64,000 bases of DNA from positions 258,332 to 322,331 of the forward strand of contig JBAZNR010000001.1 in assembly GCA_041649175.1 (NCBI GenBank). Reading direction: 5' to 3'. Within the stretch, counting starts at the first letter, position 1. The number at the start of each line of letters is the position of its first letter. The notes beneath the pieces are model-generated. The model saw only the letters and a program-made list of their open reading frames with translations, had not been told where the DNA came from and ran no database searches. The position numbers were made by a program, and so were the translations under genes. Source of the stretch: Candidatus Omnitrophota bacterium. GTDB lineage: Bacteria; Omnitrophota; Gorgyraeia; Zapsychrales; JBAZNR01. Below are positions 21,174 to 64,000 of this stretch, piece after piece.

Positions 21174-21179
21174 TAAAGT

Positions 21180-22133: not shown

Positions 22134-22979
22134 CTATCCCCCCGTCGCCCCGTACGAAAATCCTTTAACAATATGTTTCTGCATAGCTAAGTAAACAAGA
22201 ATGATAGGAAGAGCGGCAATAGTCAAGCCCGCCATCAAAACCGGATAATCAACGCTATGCGCGCCTTGGAACTTCATCAATCCCACCTGAAGAGGCATCA
22301 AGCTTTTTTCATTTAAAAGAAGCTGCGCCAAAATATATTCGTTCCAAACATTTAACGAATTGAAAATAACAACAACACCAATGGCCGGACGGACAAGCGG
22401 CAGCCCCACATGCCACCAGATCCCTATTTTACTGCATCCGTCAATACGCGCCGCATCTTCAAGGTCCGACGGTATTTTGTCAAAAAACGTCTTTAGGAAC
22501 AAAATGCTCATGGAAAGCCCAACATTGATCATACAAAGAATATAGCCGATACGCGTATCAGCTAAGCCTAATTTATTGACCAAAACAACCAGCGGGACAA
22601 AACTTCCCGGTAAGGGGATCATCATCGCGGCTATAAACATATAAAAAAAGAAATTCTTGCCCGGAAATTTCAGCCGAGAAAACGCGAAAGCAGCCAAAGA
22701 AGCGACGATCACTATTCCTATCACGACCGTCACCGTATAGATAATGCTATTTAAAAGATATATTTCAAAGCCCCCGCCAATCCAGGCTTTTATATAATTA
22801 TCAAAATTTAATACGGAAGGGATCAAAGACTTGTCCGTAAAAACCGTATCCAGGCTCATTAAAGACGAGCGAAACATCCAAAAAAGCGGGAATAAACAAG
22901 TAGCGGCCATCGTTAGTAAAAACATATGGATCGCCATGCCGTATAAAACTTTTAAAATTTGATGTTGGATCGCTTTCAT
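22134..22979 (-). CDS. ABC sugar transporter permease (MalG/UgpE-like)
   Basis: 281 aa, 6 TM, EAA loop DAARIDGCSKIGIWWHVGLP. Confidence 0.8.
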   Translation of the reverse strand: MKAIQHQILKVLYGMAIHMFLLTMAATCLFPLFWMFRSSLMSLDTVFTDKSLIPSVLNFDNYIKAWIGGGFEIYLLNSIIYTVTVVIGIVIVASLAAFAFSRLKFPGKNFFFYMFIAAMMIPLPGSFVPLVVLVNKLGLADTRIGYILCMINVGLSMSILFLKTFFDKIPSDLEDAARIDGCSKIGIWWHVGLPLVRPAIGVVVIFNSLNVWNEYILAQLLLNEKSLMPLQVGLMKFQGAHSVDYPVLMAGLTIAALPIILVYLAMQKHIVKGFSYGATGG

Positions 22980-22998
22980 AAGATCATTTCTTTAAAAC

Positions 22999-23934: not shown

Positions 23935-23935
23935 T

Positions 23936-25225: not shown

Positions 25226-25385
25226 TAATCCTCCGGGCAGTCAAGTAATTAACGAAGTAAGGCCTTCGTTAAAAAAATAACGGTACCTTGCTGCCGAATG
25301 GTATTGTACGCAGACTTTGAAGCGGAATCAATATTTATTACGGGCAAATTGAATACTAAAGCCGTCTTGATGCTCTCTCGCCCGT

Positions 25386-28646: not shown

Positions 28647-28880
28647 AAGAAAACGTTTTCTTAAGTGGTTTTTAAAAAAGTGCTTATCTTAAGCACTTTA
28701 ACAAATACTTTTTAAATGTTTTTAATCAACTCGCCTTAGGTCAGAAGTATACCGCATTGCGAAAAACTGTCAATTAGACCCAAGTACACTACCCTAATAT
28801 ATACGGCAGAATACGTAGCAGGTAACCAGAGTATAGCCGATGACTTATGTTTTGTCAATTTTTGAGGTGAAAATAGAAGT

Positions 28881-28919
28881 GGGCGTCCCCCCGCCACACT
28901 TCTTGGCGGGGGGACGCCC
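28881..28919 (-). terminator. rho-independent terminator of the GH94 gene
   Basis: Perfect hairpin GGGCGTCCCCCCGCC-ACACTTCTT-GGCGGGGGGACGCCC, with a U-rich run on the minus strand. Confidence 0.65.
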
Positions 28920-28949
28920 AACTTTGCTAAACATCCATGATCTTAAAAC

Positions 28950-35400: not shown

Positions 35401-36402
35401 GACAAGATTATCCACAGCTAAAGACATCGGATCATCGGGGTCATTGCTTGACGCACCCAAACTCATAGAGACAACGTCAAGTTGATCTACTACCGCTTGA
35501 TCTAAGGCCGCACTTAGGGCGCCTCCTGGGCAACCATGATTTTGGTGTTCCGGATCAAGATAGCCGCAGGCCCTATAGGCATACAACGTGGCATCAGGAG
35601 CAACGCCCCGAATAGGCTGCCAATTACCAGCTATGCCGTTTCCGGCGATGGTGGCCGCTACATGTGTTCCATGGCCATGATCATCCGCGGGATCATTATC
35701 GTTATCAAAGAAATCGTAGCCGCCTTCGATCTTACATCCTTCCCCTAAGCAACCGTTAGGAAATCCATCGACGGCAAAATCGGCATGCGTATAATAAATC
35801 CCGGTATCGATCACGCCGACTTTAACACCTTCCCCTGTATATCCCTCTTGCCAAACCTGCGGAGTATGAATATACGGTATTGACTGCTGCAAAAGTGTGC
35901 GATAAACCGGCCATGCAAAAACTTTCTTCACAAAGCTGAGGTTTTCAATTTGATCTTTTTCCGATGAATTTAAATCAACCGTAATTCCGTTAAGAACATA
36001 AAATACTTCTGTTTTCTGTCTTTGAGCAAATCCGGAAATAATGTTATTGATCTGCGCAATATACTGAGCATGCAAAACCGAAAGATTGCCGGCATATTGC
36101 TGAGCGCTTGTTCTTTGGTTCACGCTGATCGGATAAGAATTAAATTGTGACGCCGCCGGAAGCTCATGGAACTCGATGAAATATGATACGCTTTCTTCCT
36201 GCGGGACAATGACAACTTCTTGATTGTTATTATTAGGAATAACCGGAACTCCGATGGGAATTTCCAGATTTTGCATATCAACTTGCTGCTGCATCAAAGG
36301 CTGTGGTTCTTCAGCAATATACGCTAGTGAAGCAACCGGAACCGCAGAAATTATGAAGAAGCTGACAGCTAAACATCGCGTAAAATGAAAAATACTTTTC
36401 AT
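32476..36402 (-). CDS. secreted subtilisin-like serine protease (S8) with I9 propeptide and a C-terminal FG-GAP/VCBS beta-propeller region
   Basis: Catalytic triad motifs VGVIDTGI (D), HGTHVAAT (H) and GTSMAAPHVSG (S). Repeated DxDGDG calcium-binding FG-GAP motifs (DLDGDGTLEF, DMNGDGVLD, DIDSDGNPD, DFNNDGKDE). Start placed at the signal-peptide Met (MKSIFHF...) with a GGAGG SD; the ORF track extends to 36456. Confidence 0.8.
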   Translation of the reverse strand: MKSIFHFTRCLAVSFFIISAVPVASLAYIAEEPQPLMQQQVDMQNLEIPIGVPVIPNNNNQEVVIVPQEESVSYFIEFHELPAASQFNSYPISVNQRTSAQQYAGNLSVLHAQYIAQINNIISGFAQRQKTEVFYVLNGITVDLNSSEKDQIENLSFVKKVFAWPVYRTLLQQSIPYIHTPQVWQEGYTGEGVKVGVIDTGIYYTHADFAVDGFPNGCLGEGCKIEGGYDFFDNDNDPADDHGHGTHVAATIAGNGIAGNWQPIRGVAPDATLYAYRACGYLDPEHQNHGCPGGALSAALDQAVVDQLDVVSMSLGASSNDPDDPMSLAVDNLVNSGVVVVVSAGNDYQYKTINSPGTSRKAITVGASFDYGDSIADFSSKGPLIDGSIKPDVSAPGQWICAAKYPGQGMDASDCIDNEHINLRGTSMAAPHVSGLAALLLEQHPTWNPDQVKYAIRNSAVEGTENAFKQGHGRVDALTASQEIVPVIVKINKLTDSVSSAQYEASVISYHDQNQQIYNYTYDVGYMGQDPQFQPWDLPDPQIWDPDLHAEGTVTLMPGQPTVLGLSSVNKLELVNEGVYLVRVQITGNGQESTDYHSFIVDNTQITDPYDGDVWRTSFDFLGTMRMSTGHHYSIDYAPQGTESWTTAGIVLENDGQEPVESGTLGQFNAPADTQRGFYQFRLSVYNGGELFKRDPMALVYLDPTIREGFPARMALPNGTSSANIIPTIGNVDDDPEKEITFLRSNDQGLSSVYVIGVNGGLDDIISLDDGYNGVNKFSLFIEDLNADDSSDFLYHKYDTEIENRVVAHDRDGEVLYSNYFSGIMYRPNGTFNALWDLDHNGIKEHIFTVLSVPHRALFAMQINGEANPEHNWPQLMPDCSGTNLDAGVGVGNFDDDADDEIVYVSDSVAFCEHGVYSKMLWLFNSDGTQVREPLYIDAFAVHGSPSTADFNNDGKDEIVINTSSGIYVYRPNTQQLERWFPDVDFRVSSPAIADMNGDGVLDIIISSFSSPYTIYILNQNGTIITSWENLSGDDRLGPILGDIDSDGNPDVIYATYEWVDGIIFTKIMARNAQGQIIDGFAKYVESVAFTDKSLVDLDGDGTLEFVATADGFYRMNGDYFGRIASEHHSIFAWDLNIPADSSIQKIWPTLRQGYDRSGHYPRFSAPINFEAHRGNKGRYFGISAQWQEPPPANGLIGYVLEVSRRDDFADTESVDISLGRTSHFFRLLRGGFYYARLGSFDNAQPRNVLWSQTERVCVPGQLFMVCPDEEQSIDNLGITPGVINWSSSVSSTDDVSPRVSKNRFITE

Positions 36403-36479
36403 CACGCCTCCTCTGTTGGATGATATTGTTTTTATTTCCACATTTCGACTGAACATTTATCTTCTCCTTTCGATCAAGA

Positions 36480-39400
36480 TCAATGACACGTTGGACAAAA
36501 TTCCACCGGGCCGCTTCCAGTCCAATCGTCTGGGTCTCCTCCGGCAAAATACCCCCAAAACTTTTCCATATTTCCTTCCGGGAAAATATGATCGACAGGC
36601 TTGTAGCGCGTCAAGGGATCGTCTTCTTGATCATTACAAACGACATGGCCTCCGGGAACACAAATTGTTTTAACCGATGACCACATCACGTGGCTTCTAT
36701 CATCACGATTAATACTGCCCACGCGAGTAAAATACCAGCCCGCAGAAAGATCAGAAAAGCGGTAATTATAATTCCGTATTCCCACATCAATGGCGCTAGC
36801 ACCATTGATCAGATGACGGAATTGTGGATCTGAGGCAACTTCAGCCGTATAGGCATACACGTACTTTGATGCCAACGCATCATTCCAGGACAAGGAAGCG
36901 CTGTTGGGCCCTTGTCGAGACGCTTGGAAATTCAACGGCGCGCCAATACCGGCGTAAAGGCCGCGGCGTTGTTGATCCTGACGCAGAGATGGCCATAAAT
37001 GATTAAAAGAGGAATCAGGCACATTCAAATTCCACGCATAAAGTGATACTCGCGGGACGAGATCCGTATTTTCATCAAACCCCGCATCGTCATCATCGGA
37101 GGAACGCTGCAATCCCTTTGATGTTGCCACCAGTTCAAGTGTTCCGTCACCATCAAGATCTGTGAGGATCTTGCCGGGCGTTGTACCCGGCTCAATGTAT
37201 TTAGGAAAACCTGTTATCTCCTGTCCGAGGTAATTCTTGGCGTGGATAGAGCTGAAATAATGATCACCAATATCTTCAAAATCGCTATAAAGAACATCTA
37301 CCTGATTGTCTCCGTTAACATCGCCAAGTATTGCTCCATGAAAATCAGTAAATTTACCATGGACCGGCCAACCGCTTAGCACCGTTCCATTTTGATGCAG
37401 AACATAAATCGAGAACATAGTTGCCTCTCCTGCCTCGAAATTGGCGCTAACCACAACAATGTCGAGATAACCATCGCCATCAACATCACCTAAGGCAGGA
37501 GTAGAAAATGAACAGTCAATGCCAGATAAAAGATGCGCAGTAATTCCAGTTGCCGGATCATACCTATAAACCCCTTGATCAGTATTGACAAAAATTTCGT
37601 CAATGCCATCACCGTTAGAATCACCGCTGGAAGGAGTAGAATACGAGGCCCCGCTAAAATAAACAGGATCAGCGACAGAAAGACCGTCGTAATTAAAAAT
37701 ATATAGCTGCATTAATGGAACACCCGCGTCACAAAATGCCTCAGACTCTCCGACATAAGCAATTTCTTTATCTTCCCTATTGCTGTTAAAATTACCGACC
37801 AAAGGACTCGGCCCAAGTTCCGGCAGTCGACAAGCTGTTATGGTCTTTGGCCAGTTATCGGAGACAGGGTCTCCATTAAAATCAATCAGGTGAAGCGACT
37901 TGCTAAAAGGAGATATAGAATTTACTTGAGCAAAAATGATCTCTCTCGCCCTGTCATTATTAAGGTCCGTATTAACAAAAAAAGTGTCCTGAATGAATCC
38001 ACCGTTAAGTAGCCCACCTGCAAATATTCGAGACCATATGTGTCCTCCATCTTGACGTTTAGTACGCAATTCATTAGGATTTTGAAAACTATCGTGGCTT
38101 TGGCTTTGAAAAAGAAAATCATCGACACTATCTCCGTCAAAATCATCAAGGATAAGAGAGTGATGATTAAAATAGTTATATGTATTTCCATAATTTATTG
38201 TATTTTCATGTTCCCCATTGCTACCAAAAATATGAATACTTCTTCTGTAGCCTGAAGTTAGGCCATAAGAAACAAAGGACATTTCTTGCCTGCCATCATT
38301 GTCAATATCCTTAATGACCAGAACTGGATCTGCCTCAGAGGACTCGGAAGCATATCGTATGGTCCGTGCCGGAAAACCGCTGCGCAATTCTTGATCAACG
38401 CGAACAACGGCAATTGGCTTACTCCACCTCAGTTGATTACCATCATATATCCTTATCCAGAATTTATAAAAACCCGTTGGAAGAGATTCCGGTGTCTGAA
38501 AATTCCCTAATGCTCCTTCCTCTACAGGTTCAAGTCCCTCTTGGGTAAGTGTAATTCCATCACTCGTGAAATATGGCAACGATGAAAGATACGGCTCATA
38601 TTCGATCATATATCGGTATCCCGGGTTTATACGGATCGATCCGGAAAATGATATCGTCTCCCGCCCGATCACATCACCGCTACGCGGACTGACCACTCGC
38701 GCATTTTCTACCAAAAACGTATGGTAGTCTGTCGAATCATACCCACCTGCACTGATCGTCCTAAATCGCGCCAAATAAATACCATCAGCCGGCAATAAAG
38801 ATTTATCGATCGGATTTTGTAGTAATTCTTGAGGAATTCCCGCTTGAAGTACGATCGCGCCTTCTTGATGAAAATTAGTCATCCACTGACCGGGATCCTG
38901 CAGGTCATCCGGCTGAAAATAAGGGTCACTTCCCATATAGCCAACATCAAAGGCATATTGATATTCACCCGGCAATTCATCATGATAGCTTATCAACTGA
39001 GTTCTAAATGAGACTTCGTCTACCGTATCAACATCTTTCAGTATTTTGACAATGACCGGTGGCGGCTCTTGGCTTGCCGCAACCGCGCTAACACGGCCAT
39101 GGCCCTGAGTAAGGACATTGTATCCAAGATCGATCGCGCTATTACGAATGGCATATTTAATTTGGTCCGGATTCCAACCGGGGTGCTGCTCTAAAAGAAG
39201 AGCCGCCATGCCCGCCACATGCGGTGCCGACATAGACGTTCCCCAGGCGCTGACATGCGTACCATCAATACACGGAGTCCATCCCACGGTATTGGCTGCT
39301 TTTGCGGCACAAATTATTGCCCCAGGAGCAACAACATCAGGTTTTACACTGCCATCCATCGTTGGCCCTTTTGACGAAAAATCGATCATCTGATCAGACC

Positions 39401-40496
39401 ATATGTGGCTATCATCAAAAGTCGCCCCAACGGCAATAACCTTTCTGCCTGAAGCTGGATTACCAATAGTTTCATAGAGATAATCATTTGAAGCCGCAGC
39501 AACGGCGACAACACCAATCTCAGCCGCATTGTCAAATGCCTCAGAACAATAATTGTCTGGATCGCCAAAAAGGCCCACAGTAAAGCTTGCCGTCACAACA
39601 TCAAGATGGTCTTCCATATTGTCATCATTGTTGGGATCCACGATTTCTTCAACAGAAAGAGAACAACCTCTAATATAGGCATACAATGTCGCTCCCGGCG
39701 CAACACCTCTTATAGGCTGTCCATCACCAGCGATACCATCACCGGCAACAATGGACGCCACATGAGTTCCATGCCCGTTTGTTAGATCAAGGGCTCCCGG
39801 ATTTCCCCCGGCAACTTTTGCGCAATTTCCGCTTTGGTATTGCTCTATAGTGCAACTTCCAAAATCGGCATGAGTATAATCAATGCCAGTATCTATAACC
39901 GCAACCGTAATACCTGATCCGTCAAACCCGGGATCTTCCCACACGGCTGTTGCGCCGATCTGAGGAGCCGATTCACGCAAAAGAAACCTGGGATCTTCAA
40001 GGATATGGACTTTCTTAACAAAACCTTGTCCTTCAGCTTGTTCCTTCTCCAATCCGGTCAGGTCGATAATAATTCCGTTAGACGCTAAAACAAGATGTTC
40101 TATGTCCCGCTGGCTTAGTGCGGGAACAATAGCGCCTAATTGGGCAACGTACTGATCTTGCATATTCCGAAGATTCTGCGCGTAGATTTGTGCCCTTGAG
40201 TACTGTTCAGACGTACGAGGATACGGGCCTAATTCTAAGGCGGCAGGATGTTCATTAAACTCAATAAAACATTTTTTGATTTCGTCGGGACCCTGCTGGA
40301 CATCTTGCTGAGGAACAATGATTGTCGATTGCGTATTCCAATCAAAGGTTTTTCGGCCTTCCAACGGCGTCAAGGGATAGCGTATCGTCCCCGGAACATC
40401 CGCCGCATGAACAACGGATGGCATGGATATTGAGCTCAATAAAATAACAACAGCCAAGAACCCCAAAAAAACGTTTCGTGTCTTAAAAAACATGGT
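36480..40496 (-). CDS. paralogous secreted S8 subtilase with FG-GAP/VCBS repeats
   Basis: VAVIDTGIDYTHADF, HGTHVASI, GTSMSAPHVAG; FG-GAP motifs DIDNDGRQE, DFDGDSVDD, DSNGDGIDE, DVDGDGYLD, DLDGDGTLE. Same architecture and C-terminal VCVPG..VC motif as its neighbour. Start set at the MFFKTRNVFLGFLAVVIL signal-peptide Met with an AAGGAG SD; the ORF track extends to 40601 and would overlap the giant gene. Confidence 0.8.
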   Translation of the reverse strand, partial: TMFFKTRNVFLGFLAVVILLSSISMPSVVHAADVPGTIRYPLTPLEGRKTFDWNTQSTIIVPQQDVQQGPDEIKKCFIEFNEHPAALELGPYPRTSEQYSRAQIYAQNLRNMQDQYVAQLGAIVPALSQRDIEHLVLASNGIIIDLTGLEKEQAEGQGFVKKVHILEDPRFLLRESAPQIGATAVWEDPGFDGSGITVAVIDTGIDYTHADFGSCTIEQYQSGNCAKVAGGNPGALDLTNGHGTHVASIVAGDGIAGDGQPIRGVAPGATLYAYIRGCSLSVEEIVDPNNDDNMEDHLDVVTASFTVGLFGDPDNYCSEAFDNAAEIGVVAVAAASNDYLYETIGNPASGRKVIAVGATFDDSHIWSDQMIDFSSKGPTMDGSVKPDVVAPGAIICAAKAANTVGWTPCIDGTHVSAWGTSMSAPHVAGMAALLLEQHPGWNPDQIKYAIRNSAIDLGYNVLTQGHGRVSAVAASQEPPPVIVKILKDVDTVDEVSFRTQLISYHDELPGEYQYAFDVGYMGSDPYFQPDDLQDPGQWMTNFHQEGAIVLQAGIPQELLQNPIDKSLLPADGIYLARFRTISAGGYDSTDYHTFLVENARVVSPRSGDVIGRETISFSGSIRINPGYRYMIEYEPYLSSLPYFTSDGITLTQEGLEPVEEGALGNFQTPESLPTGFYKFWIRIYDGNQLRWSKPIAVVRVDQELRSGFPARTIRYASESSEADPVLVIKDIDNDGRQEMSFVSYGLTSGYRRSIHIFGSNGEHENTINYGNTYNYFNHHSLILDDFDGDSVDDFLFQSQSHDSFQNPNELRTKRQDGGHIWSRIFAGGLLNGGFIQDTFFVNTDLNNDRAREIIFAQVNSISPFSKSLHLIDFNGDPVSDNWPKTITACRLPELGPSPLVGNFNSNREDKEIAYVGESEAFCDAGVPLMQLYIFNYDGLSVADPVYFSGASYSTPSSGDSNGDGIDEIFVNTDQGVYRYDPATGITAHLLSGIDCSFSTPALGDVDGDGYLDIVVVSANFEAGEATMFSIYVLHQNGTVLSGWPVHGKFTDFHGAILGDVNGDNQVDVLYSDFEDIGDHYFSSIHAKNYLGQEITGFPKYIEPGTTPGKILTDLDGDGTLELVATSKGLQRSSDDDDAGFDENTDLVPRVSLYAWNLNVPDSSFNHLWPSLRQDQQRRGLYAGIGAPLNFQASRQGPNSASLSWNDALASKYVYAYTAEVASDPQFRHLINGASAIDVGIRNYNYRFSDLSAGWYFTRVGSINRDDRSHVMWSSVKTICVPGGHVVCNDQEDDPLTRYKPVDHIFPEGNMEKFWGYFAGGDPDDWTGSGPVEFCPTCH

Positions 40497-40575
40497 TCTG
40501 CTCCTTTTGCTAAGATGTTGATAAAAACGATCTATAGAAACTTGACGCGCGGACGCGTCAGACTGATTTGATCTG

Positions 40576-43500
40576 CTACAAATGAAGCATTTTTCTGACA
40601 ATTCTTATCTCCTTTCCAAAACTGTTCCCCTGAAGTTGATAAAAATAAACTCTCGGAGGTAAGTCCGAAAGATAAACGGTGATGGGGCGAATGATCACCG
40701 CCGGAAGTGACGGATCCGGAACGAACGGATAAATAGCGAAAACATCTACATAAGAACAACTATCTAAAAGATAACGGCGGATTTGGTTCGTCCGCCAGGA
40801 TAAAAGCGGCGTGTCGTGGTCGGTTGAGTCGAAATCTTGTGAGAAAATATATGAGTCTAAGGAAGATGAATCTTTGAGGGTTTCTTGAGCAGGCGCGATT
40901 TTAAATAGACTTGGATTTTCCTCCGGCGGAGAACGCGCGTCGTGAATATTATCTTTTCCACCTGATACATTATTAAGATCAGCGTTACCATGCCCAAAAA
41001 TTGTCCGCGGGAATAAAATAATAACCGCGGCAACGATCATCAAAAATGTGCCGAATCCACGTTTAAGAATTCTTTGGGGAACATTAGTCTTTATCGGAAG
41101 AGAGTTTGTTCGAGAACCTTGCTCCTTGGCTCCAACCCAGGCATTGTCATCCGTAATGCTTGAAAATGGGATCGTGCCGTTATCATCCACATGATAAAAA
41201 GTTATCTGAGCACCGTTTCGAACAATGCGTTTGGTTTCCACAAGTTTAATATCCCGGGCAACACCTTTTAATAATTCTTGAGCCGGCACAATACGAATAA
41301 GCGTCTTTCCGTTGCGTTCTGAAGATTTATGCACCATATAATCGCGCACGCCATTTTCTAATAGATAAAGTTGGGAAAGAAAATGCGCCAAGGCGATCCG
41401 ATGATCTCTTTTTAACTTTTCAATAAGACAGTTATTGTAAAGACCGAGAAATTCAATAACCGATTTTATGGTGCATGGAGACTGTCGAAAGGAAGGATCT
41501 GATCGAGAAGGGTCATCATCGGGAAAAAGGCTGTTTGCGGAACCAAAATCATTTTCACTGCGGACAAGTCCGAAAAATACAAAACTTAATAAAGAAATGC
41601 TAACTGAAGAAAAATTTTCTATCGGCCAAAGGCCTATCGGCGGGGCGTGGGCCGTTAGAGACAGCCAATCGCCAAGCTGAACAATCATTGTCTCTAACGG
41701 CCCGATCAATACTCCTAAAACAGTTGCGGCGATCATCAAAGGTAAAGCGATAAAACCAGATGAGCGAGGTAAAGAATCCTCCAATAAACTTTTCTTGCCA
41801 AAAAACTTCTTTAATATGGGCCTGAGTTTCTCAAGGACATCAGAAAATTCATTTTCTACCGCGCTTTTTTCAATATCTAAAAGCTTGGCCTCAATTCCAT
41901 CCTTAGACATCCTTTCCCCGGATTTCCTCAGCTTCTTTTTAGCTTCATCTAAATTTTTAGATCCTTTTAAGATATTCAGTATCCATTCTTCAATCAATGC
42001 CCTTTTAAAGCGCTGAAAAAGCTCTTTTGAATCATGGCCTGATTCAAGCGCAAGGATAATACCGGGAATACGGCTATCACGCAAAGCCTTATAGGACATG
42101 GAAAATACCTGGGCCGTTTTTCTTTGGTTTCCGCGTTTTTTCTGCAAAACTGTTATGATTTTCTCGATAAAATCGTGGCTAATAATTTTCTTCCGGCGGA
42201 TCTTATCCTCTTCAGCGCTCTTCGAATTTTCCAATGCCTTGTTCAAACTTTCAAGGATCTCTTGATTATTCGCAGATACTGCCTTCTCGCGAATGGTAGA
42301 AATCCTGCGGTCTAAACTTTTTTTTGCTATATTTAAAGTTTTGGCTGCTTTTCCTCGATCTCCCCTCGCATCTTTTAAAGCTTTTATAGTTTCTTCTGTA
42401 CGGGACGGCAACAAGACTTTCTTTTCTGTCTCTAATGCTTTAGCTAAACGATCAAGAACCTCTTTTTGGCCTGCTTTTACAACTTTTCTACGAAGCTTGG
42501 GGATTCTATCGCGCAAACGCTCAAGAGGAATGTTAAGTGTTTCAGCCGCTTGTTTTTTGTCTCCTTGAGCAGCTTCTAACGCTTTTAAAATATCTTCCGA
42601 ATAAGACGGTAATGCTACTTCTCTGCTTCTTGCTTCGCCTATAGAAAAAGCAAACCGCCCAAATAACAACTCTAATTTTTGAGAAAGCATGCTATCGGAA
42701 GATTCTTTGGCAAAATCATCCAATCGTAATAAAAGCCTCCCTAAGCATTGCAGTGGAACCTGAAGGTTTGAGGCCGCCTCTTGCGCGCTTTCTGATATTT
42801 CTAAGACACTGACAATGCGCTCAGTATAAGTTCCTATAGAACAAATCTCTTGTAGACGCCGCTCATAGAAAAACATATGATACTGAGAAACTGCCGCTTT
42901 AAATTCGTTTAGCTGTAAATAAAATATCTTTTTACTGATCTTATAGCCGCTTCGTTGTATGGCTTCTTCTTCATCACCATAGGATTCTTTTAATTTATCC
43001 AAGAATCTTTTGACCCGGTCCGGGCACAATATTTCACTTAGCTGCTCTTCAATACTTATAGCTGTTTTCTCCCATTCTCCACCTTTATCTTTTGCTTCCT
43101 GCTCAATATCTTCCAACCATTGAATAAATTTTGTCGTAGAAATACCGTTTTTCGCATTGAGCAAATTATAAAAACGCTCCCGGCGTGATGCTGATTTTGC
43201 GTTGATCCTCTTTGCAACAGACAAGATCCTTTGCGATTTCTCTTGAAAAGACATTGCCTCGGCAGAAACACTAGCTGTCTCATCGCTTAATGAAGATCTT
43301 AGATATCTTCGCAATTCATCTAATGAAAAGACTCTTGCGATAAGCTTTAAACTTTTTAATTCCCTCCAATGCTCTTGATCAACTTCTGCTTTGGCAGAAT
43401 TAAACAGGATCACTCGCAACAATACATCGAAATGATTCTTAACAGCCTTACAAAACTGAGGAAATTCTTCCGTATGGAACTTCTCATATTCAAAGTCCTG

Positions 43501-46500
43501 GATGAATCTTCTCCACAAATAATGCATCGAAAACACGGTTCTTTGAGATTCCGCCTTCAAGGCCAGGTCACAAATCCAATAATAAATTTCTGTATACCGG
43601 GCAAAAACCCTGTCGTACTTAATAAGCGTCTGGCGCAAAACCTTCGCGCGGGCTTCATTATCTTCCTGGATTGAATTTATCAACTCTTGCGCTTTTTCTC
43701 CCGACAGAGGATTGTCGTTATGATCTTCCGCGATTTTCTCAAAGGGAGAATTTCTTAGGCTGCGCCAAATCACTTCATCTTCCAGACATAGTATTGATTT
43801 TGAAAATCCCGGATCTCCCTGACGTGCCGTGCGATTAAATAATTGTTGGTCTTGGCGCCCAAACTTATTAGGTTCTGCCTGAATCACGACAAGCCCGCCC
43901 ATTTTGGAAACTCCTTCGCCTAATTTAATATCTTCTCCACGGCCCATCATGTTTGTCCCGACGGTAACCATCTTCTTTTGCCCGGCAGTAGCCACAATAT
44001 CAGCTTCTTGCCAAGCGTTAATGCCGTTTAGGACTTGGCAAGAGATCCCGTTCGCATTTAACAGCGCTCCTATTTCATTGGCTGTTTCAATATAACAAAC
44101 ACCAATAAGCACAGGATTTCCCTTAGCGTGCCATTTTTTTATTTCCTTAAGAACTTCCTCATATTTCTTTTTCTTTGTTCCATAAATCACCACGCCTAAG
44201 TCAGTCCGGCGGCAAGGCTTATTACGCGGGATAAAAGATGTCTTTAAGCCATAGTATTTCTGCAATTCATCCTGCTGGCGGCCAATACTTCCGCTCATTG
44301 TTGACGCTCTCTCGGCAACAGATAAGAAAAAGTGATGCTGCGTCATAATAAGCGCCGGGTCATATACTTGCGAAACGGGCAAATGCTCTTTTGTTTCAAT
44401 AAATTGATGAAGTTGTAAAGCCCAAATATGTTCCGGATGAAGCCGGCCCGTATATTCGTCCACGATCACGATCCTGCCATTTTGCACAACATACTCTTTT
44501 TCTCTGCGATAAAAATAATGGGCTTCTAGCGCCACAAAAATAAGCCGTTCAAAATATTCCTGCAAAGCTTTTTTTCCCTTGGGTGTGAGCAAAGCTATTT
44601 GCCGATAATCTAAGCGATAATGAACTCCCTTTGCTAATAAGGATTTATAAATATTGTTACGCGCCATTTCGACGGGATCTTCCTCTTCCTTTTGCTGATG
44701 GTCATTTTTGCTGATCCAGGAAATGACCTTGACAGTGTCGCGAAACCACGCATGATCGATATATTTCACGATAAAATTTTCTACCAGCTTTGCGCGCGCG
44801 TTTTTTCCTTTCTCGGTAAATCGGACATGCTTTGTAGCCGGATTTAAAATGTAATCTTCCCCCGGTAAAAGCCTATTTAAGGATTCCTGATAAAGGATCT
44901 TGTAAAAAGCACCCATATCCCATCCGTCTTTGACCGTCGTTATGATAGGCTCAAAAGCATTATCAATAAGTGTTTCATCGCCTTCATCAATAACGACAAA
45001 AGAAATTTTTCCGGGCCGGCGTACTTGTTGCTGCGCGTCCGTAACTAAATGATCTCGTTCTATATCGTACACAAACTCATCATTAACGCCGTAAGTGATA
45101 TCTGCCGCGTAGGCTTGCTTTCGATAAAGCCGCAGATTCTCTTTTTTGTTGTGTCCATTGCCATTTCCATTCCCATTTTTAGGAACTTCTAAGGGGCGTA
45201 AATTTTTATAATGCGCGCTGCCGTTTTGATAGGAAGGATCGAAAAGGTACGACTGGCCCCTGACAACAACACCGACGCTTAATCCTAAGAAATGATATAT
45301 GCCGCCCATATCATGAGCATCACGCAAGGCAAGATTTTCTTTAACCGTTGCCACATAGACGCCTTGCTCTTTTAAAGCATTTAAGTAAACAGCCGAAACG
45401 GCCGCTAATGTTTTCCCTTCGGAAGATTCCATCTGGATAGCGCGGCCTTGATAAAGTTGAAAGGCCGCCAAAAGCTGAACATCGTAAGGGCGCATTCCCG
45501 TTACCCTGAAAGCCGCCTCACTGACAACCGCAAATGCTTTCGGCAAGATCTCCTCCAAGCTTCCTCCGTTTTTAAGCCGCAGACGAAATTCTAATGTTTT
45601 GGCCCGCAATTCTTCGTCAGAAAGACCTCCAAGCTCTTTTTCAAGTTCTCTAATGCCGCTTAACAAGAGATTACTAAAAAGAACCTCATTTTCTGAGGGC
45701 AAATTATTAACATCCATAACCTTCGAGAGAGAAAGCCCAAAGTTTTTAGCCAAAACATTCACCACATTTCTAGCAATGCCTAATTCTTTGGCAGAAAGCG
45801 TTCGGTTATTCTTATTTCTCCAAAGTGCGCGTATGCCTGCCCACTCTTTAAGCTCTTCCAGCGCCAAATACAGCGTTGGCTCATCTAAAATAGCGATGAA
45901 ATTCTCTTGTGCTTGCCGCATATCACCCTCGGAATAATTTTTCATCAAAATCCTTATACCTCTTGTGCTTATCTTTAACATTTTTGCGGCTTCGGTTTTA
46001 TTGCGGCCGGCCGCTAAAAACGCGTGAAGAACGGCTCTTTTCTTGATTTCATCCCATGTTAAGGCATCGTTTTTAGCAATGTTCAAATACGGCAATATAA
46101 AAATAAAATCATGAAAGGTGTTTTGGTTTATTTGATATTCGGCTATTTTTTGATCTAAATCTTCCTTTGACAGTCCTAAGTTTCTTGCCGCATTTTCTAT
46201 ATCACCGCCGCATTTCGCCAATGCAAAAAGAATTTGTTTTTTCTCTTTTAATGTCAATTCTGCGACGGGGTCTGATTCTTCTCGGTCTTTTTTTGATCTT
46301 TTGCTAACCGCCAAAACCGCGGCGGCAAAAACCATCTCCGTTGGGGCGTGAGGAAAATAGCCAAACACCGTGATCAAGATAAGAACCGCGCCAAGAGGAT
46401 AAACAAGGTTGTAAATCCTCTTTTTCTTTAAAATAGAATAGATCCTCCCCCGAAGATATCTCTGCAGCATAATGGGGTAAAGATTGCCGAAAATATTAAA

Positions 46501-49500
46501 GATCCCTAAAACAGAAAGTAAAATCATTCCCGCTATTTGAATAATTCCTGTTGTCAGCAAACTTACGGCCAATAATCCGCCCATGACAGAAAGCACGATC
46601 AAAGAGTATATGTAGTGGATCGTTTCCATTTCCCTGGTTGTTGTCTCTTTTCTTTTTAATGCCTCAGCGGAGAAGTGATCGACAAATACACTCGGCGGTA
46701 ATTTCTTAATATCTCTCAGCAGCCATTTTCTAAACATCTTGATCCCGAGAAGCTCATATAGTTTGCCGCTTCGTTCGAAGAATTTCGGCTTAAAAACAAA
46801 CTCAGCCCGACGAGGATCTTTTAAAAATACATTCACTAAAGATGTGGAGAAGTAGGAAATCACAAGAACACCCGCAATCAAGATGAGAGAAGCTATCCCA
46901 ATAAGAACGGCCGATAAAGAAATAATAGCGAAGGATTTAGAGGAAAGAATGGTGGTGGCAAGAAATATCGTGGAATTCATCGACCCAGGGGCGAAATTTC
47001 CAAACAGATATTCCAGCATTCCCCAAAGTACCACAAACCCTGTAAGCCCAAATCCGATCCAGCCGTGAAGCTTTTCTCCATCAAGCTCTTTTAAAGAATC
47101 GTCTTCTTGCCGAGAATGAATATCCTCAAGGATGTTCTTTAAAGGTTGATGAACTCTTTGGACAGAAATAATTTTTGGGCGCAAGTATGGTATTTCTCTC
47201 AATACTGCGACACTCAGCCGAGGAGAAAAATTGCCCACTTCAAAAAAAAGATTAGTTCGGATATTGCGAAGTGCTAAGCCCCCGATATACGCACTCTTGC
47301 TCTTACCTAATTTTATGCCTGGCCTCATCACTTCAAAAGTACTACCATTCGCCCCATTAAGCACATCACCCATTTGCAAATCTTTAAGTAAAAATTGATC
47401 AGCAGGAATAGTGAGGGTTGCCATTTTTTCTTCTTGTGAAGGAGAGGAAGGAGCCTGAGCCAAAGAATTTACCGGAGAAACACTTACTACCGCTGTTAAA
47501 ACTGCGGCAGAGAAAATAAAGCGTGGGTTGAGATATTTTATCGGTGGCGCCTGGGCGAAATGGCCGAAGAGATATCCCAAAACTCCCAACAATCCTACAA
47601 ATCCAAACAACACCCAGCTGCAAAGTGCGGTTTCTTGGGAATCTAATACAAAACCTTTTGTTTGTTCTTTAGCTGACTGAGATCTATCAAGGGAACTCTT
47701 CCGAGCAAGGGCATGACCGGCTAAGACAATAAATTCGCCATTTCCCACCGGGAAGAGCAGTTTATTAGCTATGAAAATGTAAACTGCTTTTTTCATGTGC
47801 TCTGTAGATTTAATGATTTCCAACGAGGCTTTATCCAAGATTCTTTCCAAAGTTAACCGCGCCCCAATACCTGCCGCAAGGCAACATCGTTCTATTTCTT
47901 GAAGATCAACCAATACAAATTCGCCCAACGTCCCTAGTGCTTCTTTTGAGTTAATTTGAAATCTTTTTTGGAATCTGGAAATATATACCGCAATCTCTTC
48001 TGGAGTAAGAAGTTTCTCCCATGCCCTATCGGGTAGCGTGATAGACGAAACATGTTTTAGACGCTTAAATTCCCCGTTCATTCCGGGAAGAGCTAAAATT
48101 AAAATTCCATTGCGTTCATATCGAAATATAAAGCCGCGCTTATAGCTTAACGCCCCTAATATTTTTTTGATGGTTACGACAGAATTGATCATCGACAACG
48201 GCACTTGATCATAAACGATAAAAGTATTTTCCGTAAGGCCGTTAAAATAGATCGATAGCATGTCGACCCAAAATGATTCAAAATTGTCTAGGATTGGCTG
48301 GCTTTGTTCTCTGGAAAAACCCCAAACTTCAAGATTACGGATAAGTTTTTCATCTTCCCGCAAAAAAAGCGCAGGAACACTATTAGAAACACTTTGTGGA
48401 CGACTTGCTGAGCGTTTACTTTTTCCGGAGGATCGTTTTGAAGATACTCTATTTTCTTTCTGACTACTCTTTCTTAGAACATCATCTTCGTAAATCTTAT
48501 TCTTAATATCTTCCAGCAAGTGTTGTAACTCGCGGATACGAACCAAGAATCTTAAATCATCAATACCTTGGCTTAAAGGATCTAGTTGCGACAATGCCAT
48601 CTCGGCATCTTTATGATCAAAGTATTCTTGATAAATTTCGATAAGCGCCTTGGTCTTTGAGCGTAATTTTTCTGCATTCGCATCAGGAAAATTTTTCTTA
48701 GGAGCCCGCAAAGCAATCCATTGACTTAAACGTACGTCTCTGGTTTTTGTCGGTTCCTTAAAAACCGGAATGATATTCTTCAAGTCCCTAGCAGGAGGCA
48801 CCTGCCGACCGATATATGGATCAATTAGGTCTAGTAGCGCCTTAAACCGTGAGCGTGGCAAAGTTTTAAGGAAGAACTCGGGATTACTATCAATAAGCTG
48901 AGCAATTTGACGTGATGTAAATCCAAAAAGGCTTAAAACAAGATACAAGAAATGGAGGAAAACGACAGACTCTAAAAACCTTTGCTTGGTCCAATTTGAA
49001 ACCCGGTACCAATACGTGCGGCTAAAAGAAACCCCGTAGTTTTCAGGAATACGCATCCGTTCTAAAATCTCTTCCGGTAACCGAAGCCTTTCCCAAACAA
49101 CATCCGGAACAGGCCCAATATATTCCGCATCATCTCGTCCGGATAGAACAGATTCTTTTCCCGCCTTGTGCTGCGCCTGTATTTCTCGTAATTCTTTCCG
49201 AATCCTGTCTTCCTTATAATTAGATATTATAAGAGCAGAGATGGGCATTTTGAATTCATCCTGAAATATTCTTGCCTTCCTTAAATATTCCGACGGAGAA
49301 ATCTTTCTTTGGATATATTTCGGAAGTCTATGATATTCAATACCGCGGGCACGTAATTCTCTTAAAGCCGCCGGACGCCCGCTATTGCTCATTTCTTTGG
49401 CTACGCGCATTTTTTTGTTCTCGATCAAAAGAAGCCTTTGGCTATGCGCTGGCTCTGCAGCCAAATCACACCGTAACGGTTTAAATTCAACGACTAAACT

Positions 49501-52500
49501 CCGCAAAGGCCTATTTTTTAGAGTTCCAAAATCAGCCTCGGTAGCCAATCGAAATACCGCCCAGGCATATTCACCCGGATTTCCTAAAGAAAAGCTTAAT
49601 CCTTCAATGCCCTTACACCAAAGGCATGTTCCTAATTGCTCATGCTGGGCTTTACGCAATTTAACTAATTCCCTAGAGGGAATCGCCTTGGTAAATTCTT
49701 CAACGTATAAACGTAATTCGGATTCTATTTTCTCATGGGAAGGAGTTTTGCATAAACTTAACCCCAAACTCTGACAACGCGCGCGAACTTGATAAGGCCA
49801 TTGTCTTTTTCTTAAACCATCAAATGCTTTGATCATTTCTGTTGCCGTCGGAAATCTTTCATGAGCAATCGTTAAGGATTGATGAGCCGTACGGTATTCT
49901 TGATCGGTTGTCACCGATCTTCTTGTGCTTGTTTCCTGTTTTACCGTCGCCCACGCCATACCCAAGGGCGCGAAAAGAGGCAAAAACGCAAATCCGTGAA
50001 GCTTTTCTTCCGTCATTCCCTCAACCGCTTTTTCCCAGTAATCAAAAGAGTCCCCGATAACATCAGAATAAGATTCATTCAGTTTCTTAAGTGCCAAAAA
50101 TAAAGCTGTTGCCTGATCATTTAATCCAACTAAACGTAATGATTCAAGGATTCGCGTAAGGCGTAGAAAATTGTCATTCGGTGAAGATAGCCAAACACGG
50201 CTTCTATTCTTAAATCCCGGGCTATGGACGACGCGCAGGCCATTTTGACTGTTTCTTAAGGCAAGCCCATAGAAGGAAAGCATGACCTTAAGGGATCGGA
50301 TCATATTTGATCTAAGGTTTTGACCGATTTTTGTATCGGCACGAAAAGTATCGGCAGTTTCCCGGGTTAAAACAGGAGGAACAACCTTTTCTCCTAGGTT
50401 ACGGCCCATGATTTCCCACACAAAAGCACCAAGGCTTTTTGTAGGGAACAATAACTGTATAAAATTGTGGTCTTCTTCAAGCTGCTCATGGCTAAATCGC
50501 CAAATATCACGAATATATCTTCCTTCGTGGTCTGTTCTTCTTCCCAAATAAAAATCAATCAGTTTGTCATTGAATCCTGTAAGCGGCCATGAGTCATCCC
50601 CCACCGTTCCTAGGGCCGGCAAGCAGAATAAAAGCGAAATAAACGGTAGCCCGAAACAACAAAGAGCTTCCGATACAATTTTCCTGTTTTCCAACACCAC
50701 AAATTCTATTTTCCGTGCCGTGATGACATAATATTCCGTCGGGAAACCTTTGCTGTCGTAAACCTGCTTAACGGTAATGCCGCTATACCTTTGAGATCGC
50801 TCAAAATAGTGTAAAACTAAATTTATCCTTTCTTGGGCAGAGTGATGATCATTCCACGTTTTAGTTCTTGCTGAAGGATCGGAACGGTCGTCAAAAACAA
50901 CAGCAAAAGGCGCGCCAACTTTTAAAATTCGGTTAACCTCTCTAAAAAATCTCCTCGGCTGTTTAACATAGGCAATGCCGTTTTTCATCAATACGCCCGA
51001 AGCGTAATCATTCGCCAGTAATCCTAGCCCCCGATTGACATCAAAAACAATGCCTTGGGTGAGCCTTTGATTTGCGCGTAATTCAACTTGATTTAACCCG
51101 ATGCCAATAAATTCTCCCTGAAGAGTGCGCGGAAAATATGTCTTAGCGCCGCTCATCAGGTCAACAAAAATAGGTTTTTTGATCCGATGATCATTTTTAA
51201 AAATACTCATTAAGGCATGTTCAATGGCGATCTCTTGTTCAGTATTGGTATAACCGATCAAATTAGGCTTCTGCCAAACGGAAGATAGGTTTTCTACCGT
51301 CCCCCACAGCCCAAACGGCAAGAAACAAGCAAGATTATTTTGTTTCTGGAAAATATAAGCTCCATTTCTTGCCCCACCGTAAGCAGGGCCGTTATAACCA
51401 AAAATAGCCCCCTGTCTTTCTAACCCCAAAAGAACACCATCTTGCACCAAGGTTAGTAACCCGCGTGCGCTACGCTCCATAGCCCTGTCGCTATCAAGAA
51501 TGACAAATCCTCCGGGCCTTAAGAACTCTTCAATAAGCCGAGCTGATAAAAGGAATTTTCCGTCTCTAATATAAACATCACCGGCTTTGATAATGATAAG
51601 ATCAACCCCTTGGGACGCTTCAAGATGACTTCGATAGGAATCAACGGCTAAACCATCCGTTTTTTCAACAAAGATCAAAGAACGCTCTTTTCCCTGCAGC
51701 ATAAAATTCAAACTGAAAGTACCCGCGTGGTGGCCGGTCGAATTTAAATCAATATCAGTCACACCGCTTGCCCTTAGCTCTTTCTTTAAAAATGGCCATA
51801 TCCCTTGGCACATCCACAACAATTCATTCGAGATAAAACCCATTCGGCTTTTTTCTATTAAATACAATTCGATGATCTTATCTTGGTGTATGGCGCAACG
51901 CGGATCAATATCATCCATCTTGCCGCCTGTTAGCATCATCATAAGCTTGATCATCAAAAAATATTGAAGAAGCTGCTGTTGTTGCTCTTGAGAAACTGCA
52001 TTTAGATTTGTGTGAAACGGAAGTTTTTCGATAAAAATAAATTTGGCGGCATTGGTCGTAACCCAAGCTGTAGAAAAATCAGCGGCCGGCCCGATCAAAA
52101 GCGCCACTCTTTGTTCATTGTCTCTCATGGTTTCTGCGCTGTTAACAATTTCGCGGATACGGCTCATGTATCGGAAATTCAACTCTCCGCCAACCAACAT
52201 TTCCACGGACCAGATTGCCGATGATCGATCACCGCTTCTATTGCCCACCGTCGCCCACACTAAACCTAGCGGCAGACAGGCCGACAGTATAAAGCAGGAA
52301 AGTTTTTCTTGCTGTGCCGGCGAAGCGGAACTATCAGCAAAAAATTCATCCCAACCGCTGTCCATCCAATCGGCCTTCTGAATTAAACCAAATTTAGCGA
52401 CAATTTCTCCCTTTAACTCACGCGTGCACATGTTTAAGTTAACGCTCATGCTCCCGCTAGAATGAACCACGGTTGTTCCGACGCGTTGTGAGATTTTCTC

Positions 52501-63996: not shown

Positions 63997-64000
63997 GATC

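Follow-up and report, generated by a model that had tools for sequence, protein, structure and literature searches.

Residues 6112 to 6823 of a giant protein encoded by a Candidatus Omnitrophota MAG are a genuine SecA homologue, embedded in a polypeptide of at least 7,807 codons. We regard this segment as probably a fast-evolved SecA paralogue, reduced to motor and clamp and serving as a cytoplasmic module of a membrane-anchored, multi-enzyme giant protein. Its core comprises both nucleotide-binding domains (NBD1 and NBD2) and the preprotein cross-linking domain (PPXD), and about one third of canonical SecA is missing.

The giant ORF is read on the minus strand of the window (the whole 64,000-nucleotide stretch of DNA analyzed here), in a single stop-free frame that extends from 40576 to beyond 64000 and is unbroken over 23.4 kb; a run of this length in DNA of 43% GC cannot have originated by chance. 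Because the ORF is still open at the window edge, the N-terminus lies outside the window, and the full length extends beyond 7,807 codons (published sets of giant proteins were drawn up with length cut-offs of 10 or 30 kaa). The earlier note's figure of about 6,100 residues for the depth of the module in the protein is counted from the window edge, and the module's true position is further in. Assignment to the host rests on the MnmG of the window, which matches MFA5059255.1 from a Candidatus Omnitrophota MAG at 100% identity, and on an S8 peptidase and adjoining genes that are identical to MFA50592xx proteins of the same MAG. A Pfam scan shows the giant protein to combine ten or more unrelated modules in a mosaic, among them sigma-70, ROK kinase, methyltransferase, and SecA types. 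The surroundings of the SecA module are as follows:

40576..64000, minus strand: giant ORF (stop codon at 40576-40578; open at the window end).
46351..47625, minus strand: upstream TM cluster of about 8 hydrophobic segments (aa 5459-5883; Kyte-Doolittle scan).
46423..46797, minus strand: CrtO-like (PF18927) membrane acyltransferase-type module inside the upstream TM cluster (aa 5735-5859; Pfam, 56.6 bits).
45730..46257, minus strand: Fis-type HTH array (HTH_8 / HTH_30-like) preceding the SecA module (aa ~5915-6090, with HTH_8 matches from aa ~5919-5955 onward; Pfam).
42010..42843, minus strand: HTH_8 / HTH_30-like repeat array downstream of the SecA module (aa ~7053-7330; Pfam).
40999..41757, minus strand: C-terminal hydrophobic TM segments (aa 7415-7667; Kyte-Doolittle scan).
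36480..40601, minus strand: S8 subtilase with FG-GAP repeats, the next gene downstream and a candidate processing or secreted partner.
32476..36456, minus strand: second S8 subtilase with FG-GAP repeats (MFA5059273.1).

The SecA module sits between the two TM clusters. The TM bundle and Fis-type HTHs said to precede it are both upstream, the bundle also containing the CrtO-type membrane-enzyme module, whose only matches are small stand-alone CrtO-like proteins.

Homology to SecA is specific at the levels of both sequence and fold. Three Pfam families exceed their gathering cut-offs: SecA_DEAD (PF07517, NBD1) at 202 bits versus 24.6, P-loop_SecA (PF21090, NBD2) at 136 bits versus 27, and SecA_PP_bind (PF01043, PPXD) at 59.7 bits versus 23.5 (profile positions 17-110 across 158 residues), and T. 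maritima SecA matches the module at 350 bits in a phmmer search of the PDB. In the AF2 model (mean pLDDT 68.7, falling below 50 past the scaffold helix), NBD1 and NBD2 are confident, and Foldseek returns exclusively SecA structures at E values of 1e-44 to 1e-23 (TM up to 0.70), other SF2 helicases reaching only about 1e-7. A generic DEAD-box or SF2 helicase domain, which could appeal to nothing beyond superficial motif similarity, is rejected on the presence of the PPXD, the gap between these E values, the absence of a PF00270 match, and a Helicase_C (PF00271) score of 15.9 bits against a cut-off of 23.5. The earlier reading of the module as SecA-specific and equipped with a PPXD is upheld. 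Among the profiles suggested for checking it, SecA_DEAD and SecA_PP_bind are above cut-off, and SecA_SW (PF07516; 13.4 bits, cut-off 26.7) joins Helicase_C below it.

The span first proposed for the module, 43297-45669, translates cleanly only on the minus strand, the strand having been left unstated. Within it, we recognize the following parts:

44950..45666, minus strand: first part of SecA NBD1, starting at about canonical residue 20 (aa 6112-6350; Pfam, NCBIfam, and AF2 model).
45409..45426, minus strand: Walker A / motif I, MESSEGKT (canonical MkTGEGKT), with Lys and Thr kept.
45136..45225, minus strand: low-complexity, NG-rich NBD1 loop (aa 6259-6288), including NGNGNGNG (pLDDT <50, model residues 160-189).
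44977..44988, minus strand: Walker B / motif II, DEGD (canonical DEVD).
44470..44949, minus strand: preprotein cross-linking domain (aa 6351-6510); a charged insertion, about 60 residues long, occupies aa 6415-6472.
43720..44469, minus strand: end of NBD1 and NBD2 (aa 6511-6760), with motif III (SGS), motif V (GRGED), and motif VI.
43807-43845, minus strand: motif VI, QLFNRTARQGDPG, in NBD2.
43531..43710, minus strand: vestigial helical-scaffold helix 1 (aa 6764-6823; 48-residue helix, pLDDT about 60).
43300..43530, minus strand: helical stretch of about 77 residues (aa 6824-6900), with no wing-domain or two-helix-finger assignment.

The signature motifs are present in canonical order, as had been reported: SSEGKT at aa 6192, NGNGNGNG at aa 6275, VVIDEGD at aa 6335, and NRTARQGDPG at aa 6722. 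The low-complexity insertion noted in NBD1 is likewise present, as the NG-rich stretch of a low-confidence loop whose site is naturally variable and carries an insertion in T. maritima SecA too. As to whether the PPXD is intact, the domain is found, at 25% identity to canonical SecA, and its charged insertion is of low confidence in the AF2 model. Residues kept for ATPase function include the Walker A Lys, the Walker B Asp-Glu, the motif V Arg, and two of the three motif VI Arg residues, the first Arg and the Gly of motif VI being changed; from these we infer that ATP binding and hydrolysis are retained.

Beyond NBD2, little of canonical SecA can be recognized. We built region profiles for scaffold helix 1, the wing domain, and the two-helix finger from 33 canonical SecAs, with 88 SecAs as controls. 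The scaffold helix 1 profile scores 3-7 bits in the giant protein (versus 73-109 bits in the controls) and aligns by hhalign over 60 columns at 23% identity (P 0.0055), so that the helical scaffold claimed to follow in canonical order survives as this weak helix after NBD2. For the two-helix finger/IRA1 (LRxGIxLRxYxQxDPLxEYK), neither HMM nor hhalign gives a match anywhere in the giant protein (controls score a median of 125 bits, and the finger is recovered in the divergent L001 SecA at 52.9 bits and an hhalign probability of 98%). The wing-domain profile has no matches across the giant protein, in a weak test in which the L001 control itself scores only 2.6 bits. The C-tail alignment columns, covering the C-terminal tail/zinc finger, are all gaps in the module, and the N-terminal amphipathic helix is missing, since the module starts at about canonical residue 20. 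Judged by its sequence, then, the module is a SecA without a wing domain, two-helix finger, C-tail/zinc finger, or N-terminal lipid-binding helix and with a scaffold reduced to vestigial helix 1, and the earlier description of it as complete does not stand. In the model, aa 6824-6900 (pLDDT <50) may hold a structurally analogous helix-loop-helix.

What is present has diverged strongly. The module is about 35% identical to every canonical SecA, its identity falls below the minimum among canonical SecAs in every domain, which lends indirect support to a long branch, and only 147 of 266 canonical near-invariant columns (55%) are kept. The 45% of positions that have changed include those in the NBD1-PPXD stems (IDEARTPLII to IDNAFEPIIT and GRRYSxGLHQ to EHIWALQLHQ) and in motif VI, changes that could impair coupling or catalysis itself. 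Searches for a close relative found none, the best identity to anything being about 40%. The NCBIfam SecA equivalogs score 441 bits (TIGR00963, cut-off 800) and 469 bits (PRK12904, cut-off 814), and the SecA2 models, whose cut-offs are 725-1100, reach 294-433 bits.

The SecA equivalog scores, about half of the cut-offs, together with the low identity, the missing third, and a codon usage equal to that of the rest of the gene, agree with the earlier view that this is not the housekeeping secA. They also bear on the possibility that an ordinary secA was joined to its neighbors by misassembly or a sequencing frameshift, which, like the generic helicase, we consider extremely improbable. Against a displaced ordinary secA stand this divergence from every canonical SecA and the lack of the finger, wing domain, C-tail, and N-terminus, which all 88 control SecAs possess. 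The module lacks its own start and stop; its codon usage and GC3 equal those of the remainder of the giant gene, flanking modules included, with no composition break; and the neighboring genes recur in two assembly versions (contigs of 1.17 and 1.23 Mb). Misassembly is effectively refuted by the divergence, the missing ends, the uniform codon usage, and the two assembly versions, and the claim that the module is internal to the giant polypeptide is sustained by the single stop-free frame and matching codon usage. Also in keeping with an internal position, promoter and terminator sites show no excess.

Removal of IRA1 and the C-domain from E. coli SecA deregulates its ATPase and abolishes translocation. 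The corresponding engineered truncation, SecA-N68 (PDB 5k9t), is among the Foldseek matches of the module and resembles it in having the DEAD motor and PPXD without the C-domain, and its behavior offers a mechanistic analogy for the module. In contrast to this laboratory construct, the module is natural, tethered to the membrane in cis, and far more diverged, and keeps one scaffold helix. With canonical SecAs (E. coli, B. subtilis, and T. maritima; PDB 3jux, 1tf5, and 3din), it shares the NBD1-PPXD-NBD2 fold and order, the Walker A Lys, the DExD, the motif V Arg, and the RQGDPG of motif VI, but it is not a stand-alone protein of 800-1000 aa and lacks their N-terminal amphipathic helix, wing domain, two-helix finger/IRA1, and C-terminal linker/zinc finger. 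SecA2 proteins retain the scaffold and two-helix finger. Like the accessory SecA2 of Gram-positive bacteria and mycobacteria (PDB 6sxh and 4uaq), the module is a diverged SecA paralogue whose presumed task is to handle special substrates beside a housekeeping SecA; SecA2, however, stands alone, whereas the module is embedded and does not reach SecA2 equivalog scores. Pfam detects no SecY2/Asp partner families in the giant protein and 10 neighboring proteins.

The module is most likely a membrane-tethered, ATP-driven polypeptide clamp for the giant protein's own membrane biogenesis. It would bind and hydrolyze ATP and clamp unfolded polypeptide, and the flanking TM segments would hold it at the membrane in cis, standing in for SecA's own lipid-binding ends. 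The chain would be held or fed to the cell's ordinary SecYEG/YidC, with no finger-driven push as in canonical SecA. The autonomous, self-contained secretion proposed in the earlier note finds no support, as the finger, wing domain, and C-tail are absent and no SecY-, SecE-, or YidC-like domains were detected in the giant protein. It is unlikely, though worth stating, that the module is a fingerless, cis-tethered SecA that actively translocates or inserts substrates through SecYEG by means of the NBD1/NBD2 motor and PPXD clamp; its substrates could then be the many TM or exported segments of the giant protein or the co-encoded S8/FG-GAP proteins. If so, it would be a natural working SecA without a two-helix finger, with bearing on the debate between power-stroke and Brownian-ratchet mechanisms and on the membrane insertion of polypeptides of 10 to >100 kaa.

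Two further explanations dispense with a motor acting in place. The more credible of them, to which we give perhaps one chance in four, is that the module is a decaying or noncatalytic passenger, i.e., a neutral relic or pseudo-enzyme spacer, giant genes accumulating copies of ordinary genes. The loss of the C-terminal third and of nearly half of the near-invariant positions, the subcanonical identity in every domain, the failure to find relatives, and the mosaic of unrelated housekeeping-type modules in the giant protein would all suit such a passenger, as would the long branches reported for giant-protein SecA domains (10.1101/2023.11.21.568195). Against this, the module has lost none of the residues on which ATP hydrolysis most directly depends, while many others have drifted; one reading frame runs unbroken through 23.4 kb; and the AF2 model gives confident folds for NBD1 and NBD2. 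SecA_DEAD plus PPXD is moreover reported from several subtypes of Omnitrophota giants, in most of the full-length proteins, a recurrence that argues for selection. Rather improbable is a polyprotein whose cleavage, at a hydrophobic junction motif or at other sites and perhaps by the downstream S8 subtilases, would free an N68-like SecA paralogue to act as a deregulated ATPase or chaperone. A motif of this kind (..F-L-P-[LF]-G-x-W-[GA]-T-V followed by polar residues) does recur between modules, in 5 strict and about 9 loose copies versus 0.07 expected from locally shuffled sequence; the giant ORF is immediately followed, on its own strand, by the genes for both S8 peptidases; and West-Roberts et al. 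mention possible cleavage by C39/S8 peptidases (10.1101/2023.11.21.568195). All copies of the motif, however, fall within aa 400-4700, none of them flanking the SecA module, and both S8 proteins carry ordinary signal peptides and therefore probably act outside the cytoplasm.

[quoted passage not shown] According to West-Roberts et al. (2023, 10.1101/2023.11.21.568195), most such proteins have a divergent SecA_DEAD plus PPXD, without scaffold or wing, after C-terminal TM anchors. These domains form a long-branch clade, distinct from the normal secA found in those genomes, and their proposed role is export of the giant protein to which they belong. Nielsen & Lui (2026, 10.64898/2026.06.07.730766) add a 20-protein PF07517 architecture cluster among giants and "multi-enzyme" giants with HATPase_c, methyltransferase, and ROK modules. 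Our protein agrees with these accounts in phylum, in an embedded divergent SecA_DEAD plus PPXD with the scaffold and wing absent at the Pfam level, in the position of the module toward the C-terminal end past TM anchor segments, in a mosaic host of HATPase_c, methyltransferase, and ROK modules punctuated by TM helices, and in nearby S8 peptidases and carbohydrate-uptake genes. Because this arrangement has already been described for Omnitrophota, the module adds an example rather than a new kind of system. The earlier note's suggestion of high novelty is not borne out, and the finding alone repeats a reported phenomenon. The module here differs in lacking detectable close relatives (no match exceeds about 40% identity) and in having a still recognizable vestigial scaffold helix 1 and Fis-type HTH arrays on both sides.

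For the synthesis and membrane insertion of many-thousand-residue proteins with dozens of TM segments, a built-in SecA-derived motor is the only obvious clue, and its residue-level anatomy adds to what the available portions of the published surveys give at the Pfam level. The ATPase core, the polypeptide clamp, and one vestigial scaffold helix are kept, and every element by which canonical SecA engages lipids, SecB, and the pore of SecY (N-terminal helix, wing domain, finger, and C-tail) is gone. The module boundaries define an expressible construct of about 700 residues.

On the minus strand, positions 43297-45669 read as a clean sequence of 791 residues; the plus-strand reading is full of stops and was rejected. 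The interval marked in the earlier note as a complete SecA-like ATPase holds as a reading frame on the minus strand. It forms part of a single stop-free frame that extends from the window edge at 64000 down to a stop codon at 40576-40578, counts at least 7,807 codons, and has no 5' limit within the window. Because residues are counted from the window edge (residue i begins at 63999-3(i-1)) and the frame is open there, the module's placement "about 6,100 residues in" is a minimum rather than its true position. All of the motifs picked out in the earlier note lie in this one frame and in the expected order: SSEGKT at residue 6192, NGNGNGNG at 6275, VVIDEGD at 6335, and NRTARQGDPG at 6722. By Pfam, the giant protein is a mosaic of modules, all on the minus strand:

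aa 1329-1440: HATPase_c (histidine-kinase ATPase domain)
aa ~1480-1780: Fis-type HTH_8 array of at least 3-5 units
aa 1804-2018 (window 57946-58590): complete sigma-70, regions 2 to 4 (2 and 4 above Pfam cut-offs)
aa 2173-2292: APH-type kinase
aa 2547-2687: metallophosphatase
aa 2883-3058: ROK kinase
aa 3329-3448: SAM methyltransferase
aa ~4497-4670 (window 49990-50511): OGFr_N (opioid growth factor receptor conserved region, PF04664), 56 bits (cut-off, 22)
aa 5735-5859: CrtO-like membrane module
from aa 5919: HTH_8 units
aa 6112-6823: SecA module
aa ~7053-7330: further HTH_8/HTH_30-like repeats

Hydrophobic segments are concentrated in two clusters, aa 5459-5883 and aa 7415-7667; the first cluster and the HTH_8 units that follow it account for the transmembrane (TM) bundle and Fis-type HTHs previously seen ahead of the module. 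With TM clusters on either side, the module and its flanking HTH arrays form a loop of ~1,500 residues, which we infer to be cytoplasmic because the module needs ATP.

The module is a true SecA homologue. It scores far above the Pfam gathering cut-offs for SecA_DEAD (202 bits), P-loop_SecA (the NBD2 profile, 136 bits), and SecA_PP_bind (the preprotein cross-linking domain, PPXD; 59.7 bits); Helicase_C (15.9 bits) and SecA_SW (13.4 bits) fall short of theirs. Top matches among solved structures are all SecA (e.g., Thermotoga maritima SecA, 350 bits); alignments to the latter stop near residue 663 of the chain, within the first scaffold helix. An AlphaFold2 model built from the module and 33 canonical SecAs (alignment A1) has a mean pLDDT of 68.7, with good confidence for NBD1 and NBD2, intermediate confidence for the PPXD core, and low confidence in an NG-rich loop (model residues 160-189), in a PPXD insertion (316-373), and in all that lies beyond ~residue 736. 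One 48-residue helix (669-716) lies at the place expected of the scaffold helix. The PPXD is present by profile and model but carries a poorly modeled insertion. The low-complexity insertion reported within NBD1 is likewise real, and falls in a loop of variable length among SecAs, where T. maritima SecA carries an insertion of its own. Foldseek searches of the PDB return SecA and SecA2 chains only at E values of 1e-44 to 1e-23 (highest TM-score, 0.70); SF2 helicases (e.g., DinG and LGP2) come next, at only ~1e-7. TM-scores are higher for SecY-bound conformers (3din, 3dl8, 6itc; ~0.70), although PPXD placement is unreliable at a pLDDT of ~69. The SecA-specific Pfam scores and the SecA-only top structural matches therefore dispose of the possibility that the similarity is only that of a generic DEAD-box protein.

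The module is not, as had been proposed, complete. HMMs for scaffold helix 1, the wing domain, and the two-helix finger (IRA1) were built from the 33 canonical SecAs and searched against the whole giant protein; the controls were 88 canonical SecAs outside model building plus L001, a divergent stand-alone SecA.

Scores of SecA region profiles against the giant protein and control SecAs
NBD1 + PPXD + NBD2: giant protein, 498 bits
Scaffold helix 1: giant protein, 3-7 bits at aa 6773-6814; 88 controls, 73-109 bits
Wing domain: giant protein, no relevant match; control median, 99.7 bits, but L001 undetected (2.6 bits)
Two-helix finger (IRA1): giant protein, zero matches; control median, 125 bits; L001, 52.9 bits

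By hhalign, only the first 60 profile columns, corresponding to the long scaffold helix, match aa 6764-6823 (23% identity, P = 0.0055), and nothing else of a finger or wing emerged from aa 6760-7000. The L001 tail is recovered at 99.7% probability overall (finger, 98%), such that the finger and whole-tail profiles pass this control; a hidden divergent finger or wing in that interval was rejected on this basis, with the qualification that the wing profile alone misses L001. The N-terminal amphipathic helix is also absent, since alignments begin at about canonical residue 20, and the columns of the C-terminal linker and zinc finger are all gaps. What survives of the scaffold is a vestigial helix 1; the ~77 helical residues that follow it (aa 6824-6900) match no SecA element, but may, in the low-confidence model (pLDDT < 50), form a structurally analogous helix-loop-helix.

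Of 266 columns with 90% or greater conservation among the canonical SecAs (the top matches from a search of 5.8 billion proteins and not a balanced sample), the module keeps 147. Its mean identity to canonical SecAs falls below the minimum between any two of them in every region except the unalignable tail.

Mean identity of the module to canonical SecAs, and minimum identity between canonical pairs
NBD1: 0.49; 0.57
PPXD: 0.25; 0.36
NBD2: 0.40; 0.60
Scaffold helix 1: 0.24; 0.40

Scores of 294-480 bits against the NCBIfam SecA and SecA2 equivalog models (cut-offs, 725-1493) rule out membership in SecA2. Residues with the most direct role in ATP hydrolysis are nonetheless retained, as judged by sequence comparison: Walker A reads MESSEGKT (canonical, MkTGEGKT), Walker B DEGD (DEVD), motif III SGS (TGT), motif V GRGED, and motif VI QLFNRTARQGDPG (QLRGRaGRQGDPG), with two of three arginines kept. 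The stems joining NBD1 to the PPXD are strongly changed (IDEARTPLII to IDNAFEPIIT and GRRYSxGLHQ to EHIWALQLHQ).

That the module might be the organism's ordinary secA joined to its neighbors by misassembly, or else a generic helicase, we regard as having next to no chance of being correct. Its GC content (0.429), GC3 (0.42), and codon-usage distance (0.225) are within the range of the gene's other 790-codon blocks, no composition break occurs at the scale of the window, and the number of promoter- and terminator-like sites near the module does not exceed shuffled expectation; moreover, two versions of the assembly on record carry the genes adjoining the giant ORF, on contigs of 1.17 and 1.23 Mb. 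Together, these rule out misassembly and recent transfer, and the presence of a PPXD and the structural matches rule out a generic helicase. The suggestion that this is not the housekeeping SecA is borne out by its divergence, missing parts, and internal position, making the earlier interpretation as a whole partly right; the presence of a normal secA beside the module rests on a literature statement for the class (10.1101/2023.11.21.568195).

The only matches to the module among 5.8 billion proteins were canonical SecAs (800-900 aa, ~35% identity); the search gave neither close relatives nor a self-match. GTDB species genomes yielded no close relative, and JGI metagenomes only L001, an ordinary 861-aa SecA on a 5.6-kb contig. 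The giant protein is absent from the searched collections although its neighbors MnmG, S8, and GH94 are present (MFA5059255-MFA5059273), and the missing self-match is therefore a property of the databases and not of the biology. The MnmG in the window is 100% identical to MFA5059255.1, and other neighbors match MFA5059269, MFA5059270, and MFA5059273 (locus tags WC676_014xx); these proteins all belong to a Candidatus Omnitrophota bacterium MAG. An exhaustive HMMER search with the TM/HTH region (aa 5430-6110) recovered no giant relatives; its matches were confined to free-standing small CrtO-like proteins and a handful of proteins with multiple HTHs.

SecA domains embedded in giant proteins are already published, and the window adds another example; novelty is for this reason low to moderate. 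West-Roberts et al. (10.1101/2023.11.21.568195), whose report covers Omnitrophota and some Actinobacteriota, place such domains after TM anchors near the C-terminus and in a long-branch clade separate from the SecA of normal length encoded in those genomes, and consider export of the giant protein itself by these domains possible. Nielsen and Lui (10.64898/2026.06.07.730766) recognize a "multi-enzyme" class of architecture in which methyltransferase, HATPase_c, and ROK modules abound, a PF07517 (SecA_DEAD) architecture cluster of 20 proteins, and TM helices ranging from ~1 per 370 residues in the densest giant to ~1 per 1,000 (147 helices in a giant of 147,155 aa). Our giant protein shares with the published ones the SecA_DEAD domain, TM anchors, multi-enzyme modules, and S8 and carbohydrate-import neighbors. 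New here is the residue-level anatomy, fingerless and wingless with an intact catalytic core, which is a useful refinement and provides a testable construct.

The module comprises an NBD1-NBD2 motor with core catalytic residues intact, a PPXD, and a vestigial scaffold helix, set between TM clusters. Such an arrangement would most likely act as an ATP-driven polypeptide clamp, held at the membrane by the giant protein's own TM segments, which would replace the lipid-binding N-terminus and the C-domain. The clamp would help to insert or export the giant's own segments or co-encoded secreted proteins, handing the chain to the cell's normal SecYEG/YidC with no finger-driven pushing. The autonomous, self-contained secretion previously envisaged is not supported: nothing SecY-, SecE-, or YidC-like was detected in the giant protein. 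The earlier reading was sound in recognizing a real SecA-like module but overstated its completeness. The engineered Escherichia coli fragment N68 has the same domain set and is among the Foldseek matches (5k9t). Its ATPase is deregulated and it is not known to translocate protein, a warning that a working motor is not necessarily a translocase. A decaying or purely structural passenger is an appreciable, if minority, prospect; release of a free, N68-like SecA from a polyprotein seems distinctly improbable. We favor the membrane-held clamp.

A conserved hydrophobic junction motif, roughly L-[SA]-[CA]-F-L-P-[LF]-G-x-W-[GA]-T-V with polar or acidic residues after it, occurs at the boundaries of unrelated enzyme modules (window ~49950-62770, minus strand; aa ~400-4690). 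Copies end at aa 415, 1464, 2050, ~2876, 3721, 3918, 4235, 4466, and 4686, and strict matches number 5 against 0.07 expected from 20-residue block shuffles; neither the latter half of the giant protein nor the window's other ORFs contain the motif. It is not an ordinary signal peptide, as genuine ones in the window end in AxA-type sites and look different from it. The motif may be the source of the many "TM helices" called by predictors in giants, or else a processing or anchoring site.

A "unit-start" module of ~400-600 residues occurs twice in the giant protein (aa 12-377, window 62869-63966; aa 4833-5429, window 47713-49503; both minus strand), with 28-39% identity between copies, a duplication suggesting that the protein is built of at least two tandem super-units. 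A word-indexed search of the 5.8 billion proteins with the second copy (aa 4833-5450) found zero homologues. HTH_8/HTH_30-like units form three separate tandem arrays (45730-46257, 42010-42843, and 58600-59682, minus strand), the first two flanking the SecA module; the sigma-70-type module is preceded by HATPase_c and an HTH_8 array. A few unrelated proteins of 550-830 aa recovered by exhaustive search (P0248, P0252, P0269, and P0318) are built of 6-10 HTH units. Rather than binding DNA, such arrays may serve as structural linkers.

The giant gene is followed directly, on the same strand (32476-40601, minus), by two paralogous S8 subtilase genes with FG-GAP repeats, of ~1,350 aa each, the second with an ordinary signal peptide; S8 and C39 peptidases have been raised as possible processing enzymes (10.1101/2023.11.21.568195). 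Beyond them, a carbohydrate-uptake and metabolism cluster (13810-31370) adjoins the locus, containing a GH94 phosphorylase, a secreted 1,086-aa protein with no Pfam match, ABC sugar-uptake genes (a solute-binding protein and two ORFs, 22134-23934, that are putative permeases from their hydrophobic N-termini), an MFS transporter, a TPR/GH2-like protein, and a ROK regulator/kinase gene. This agrees with the published link of giant genes to carbohydrate import, genes for which are frequent near giants (10.1101/2023.11.21.568195).
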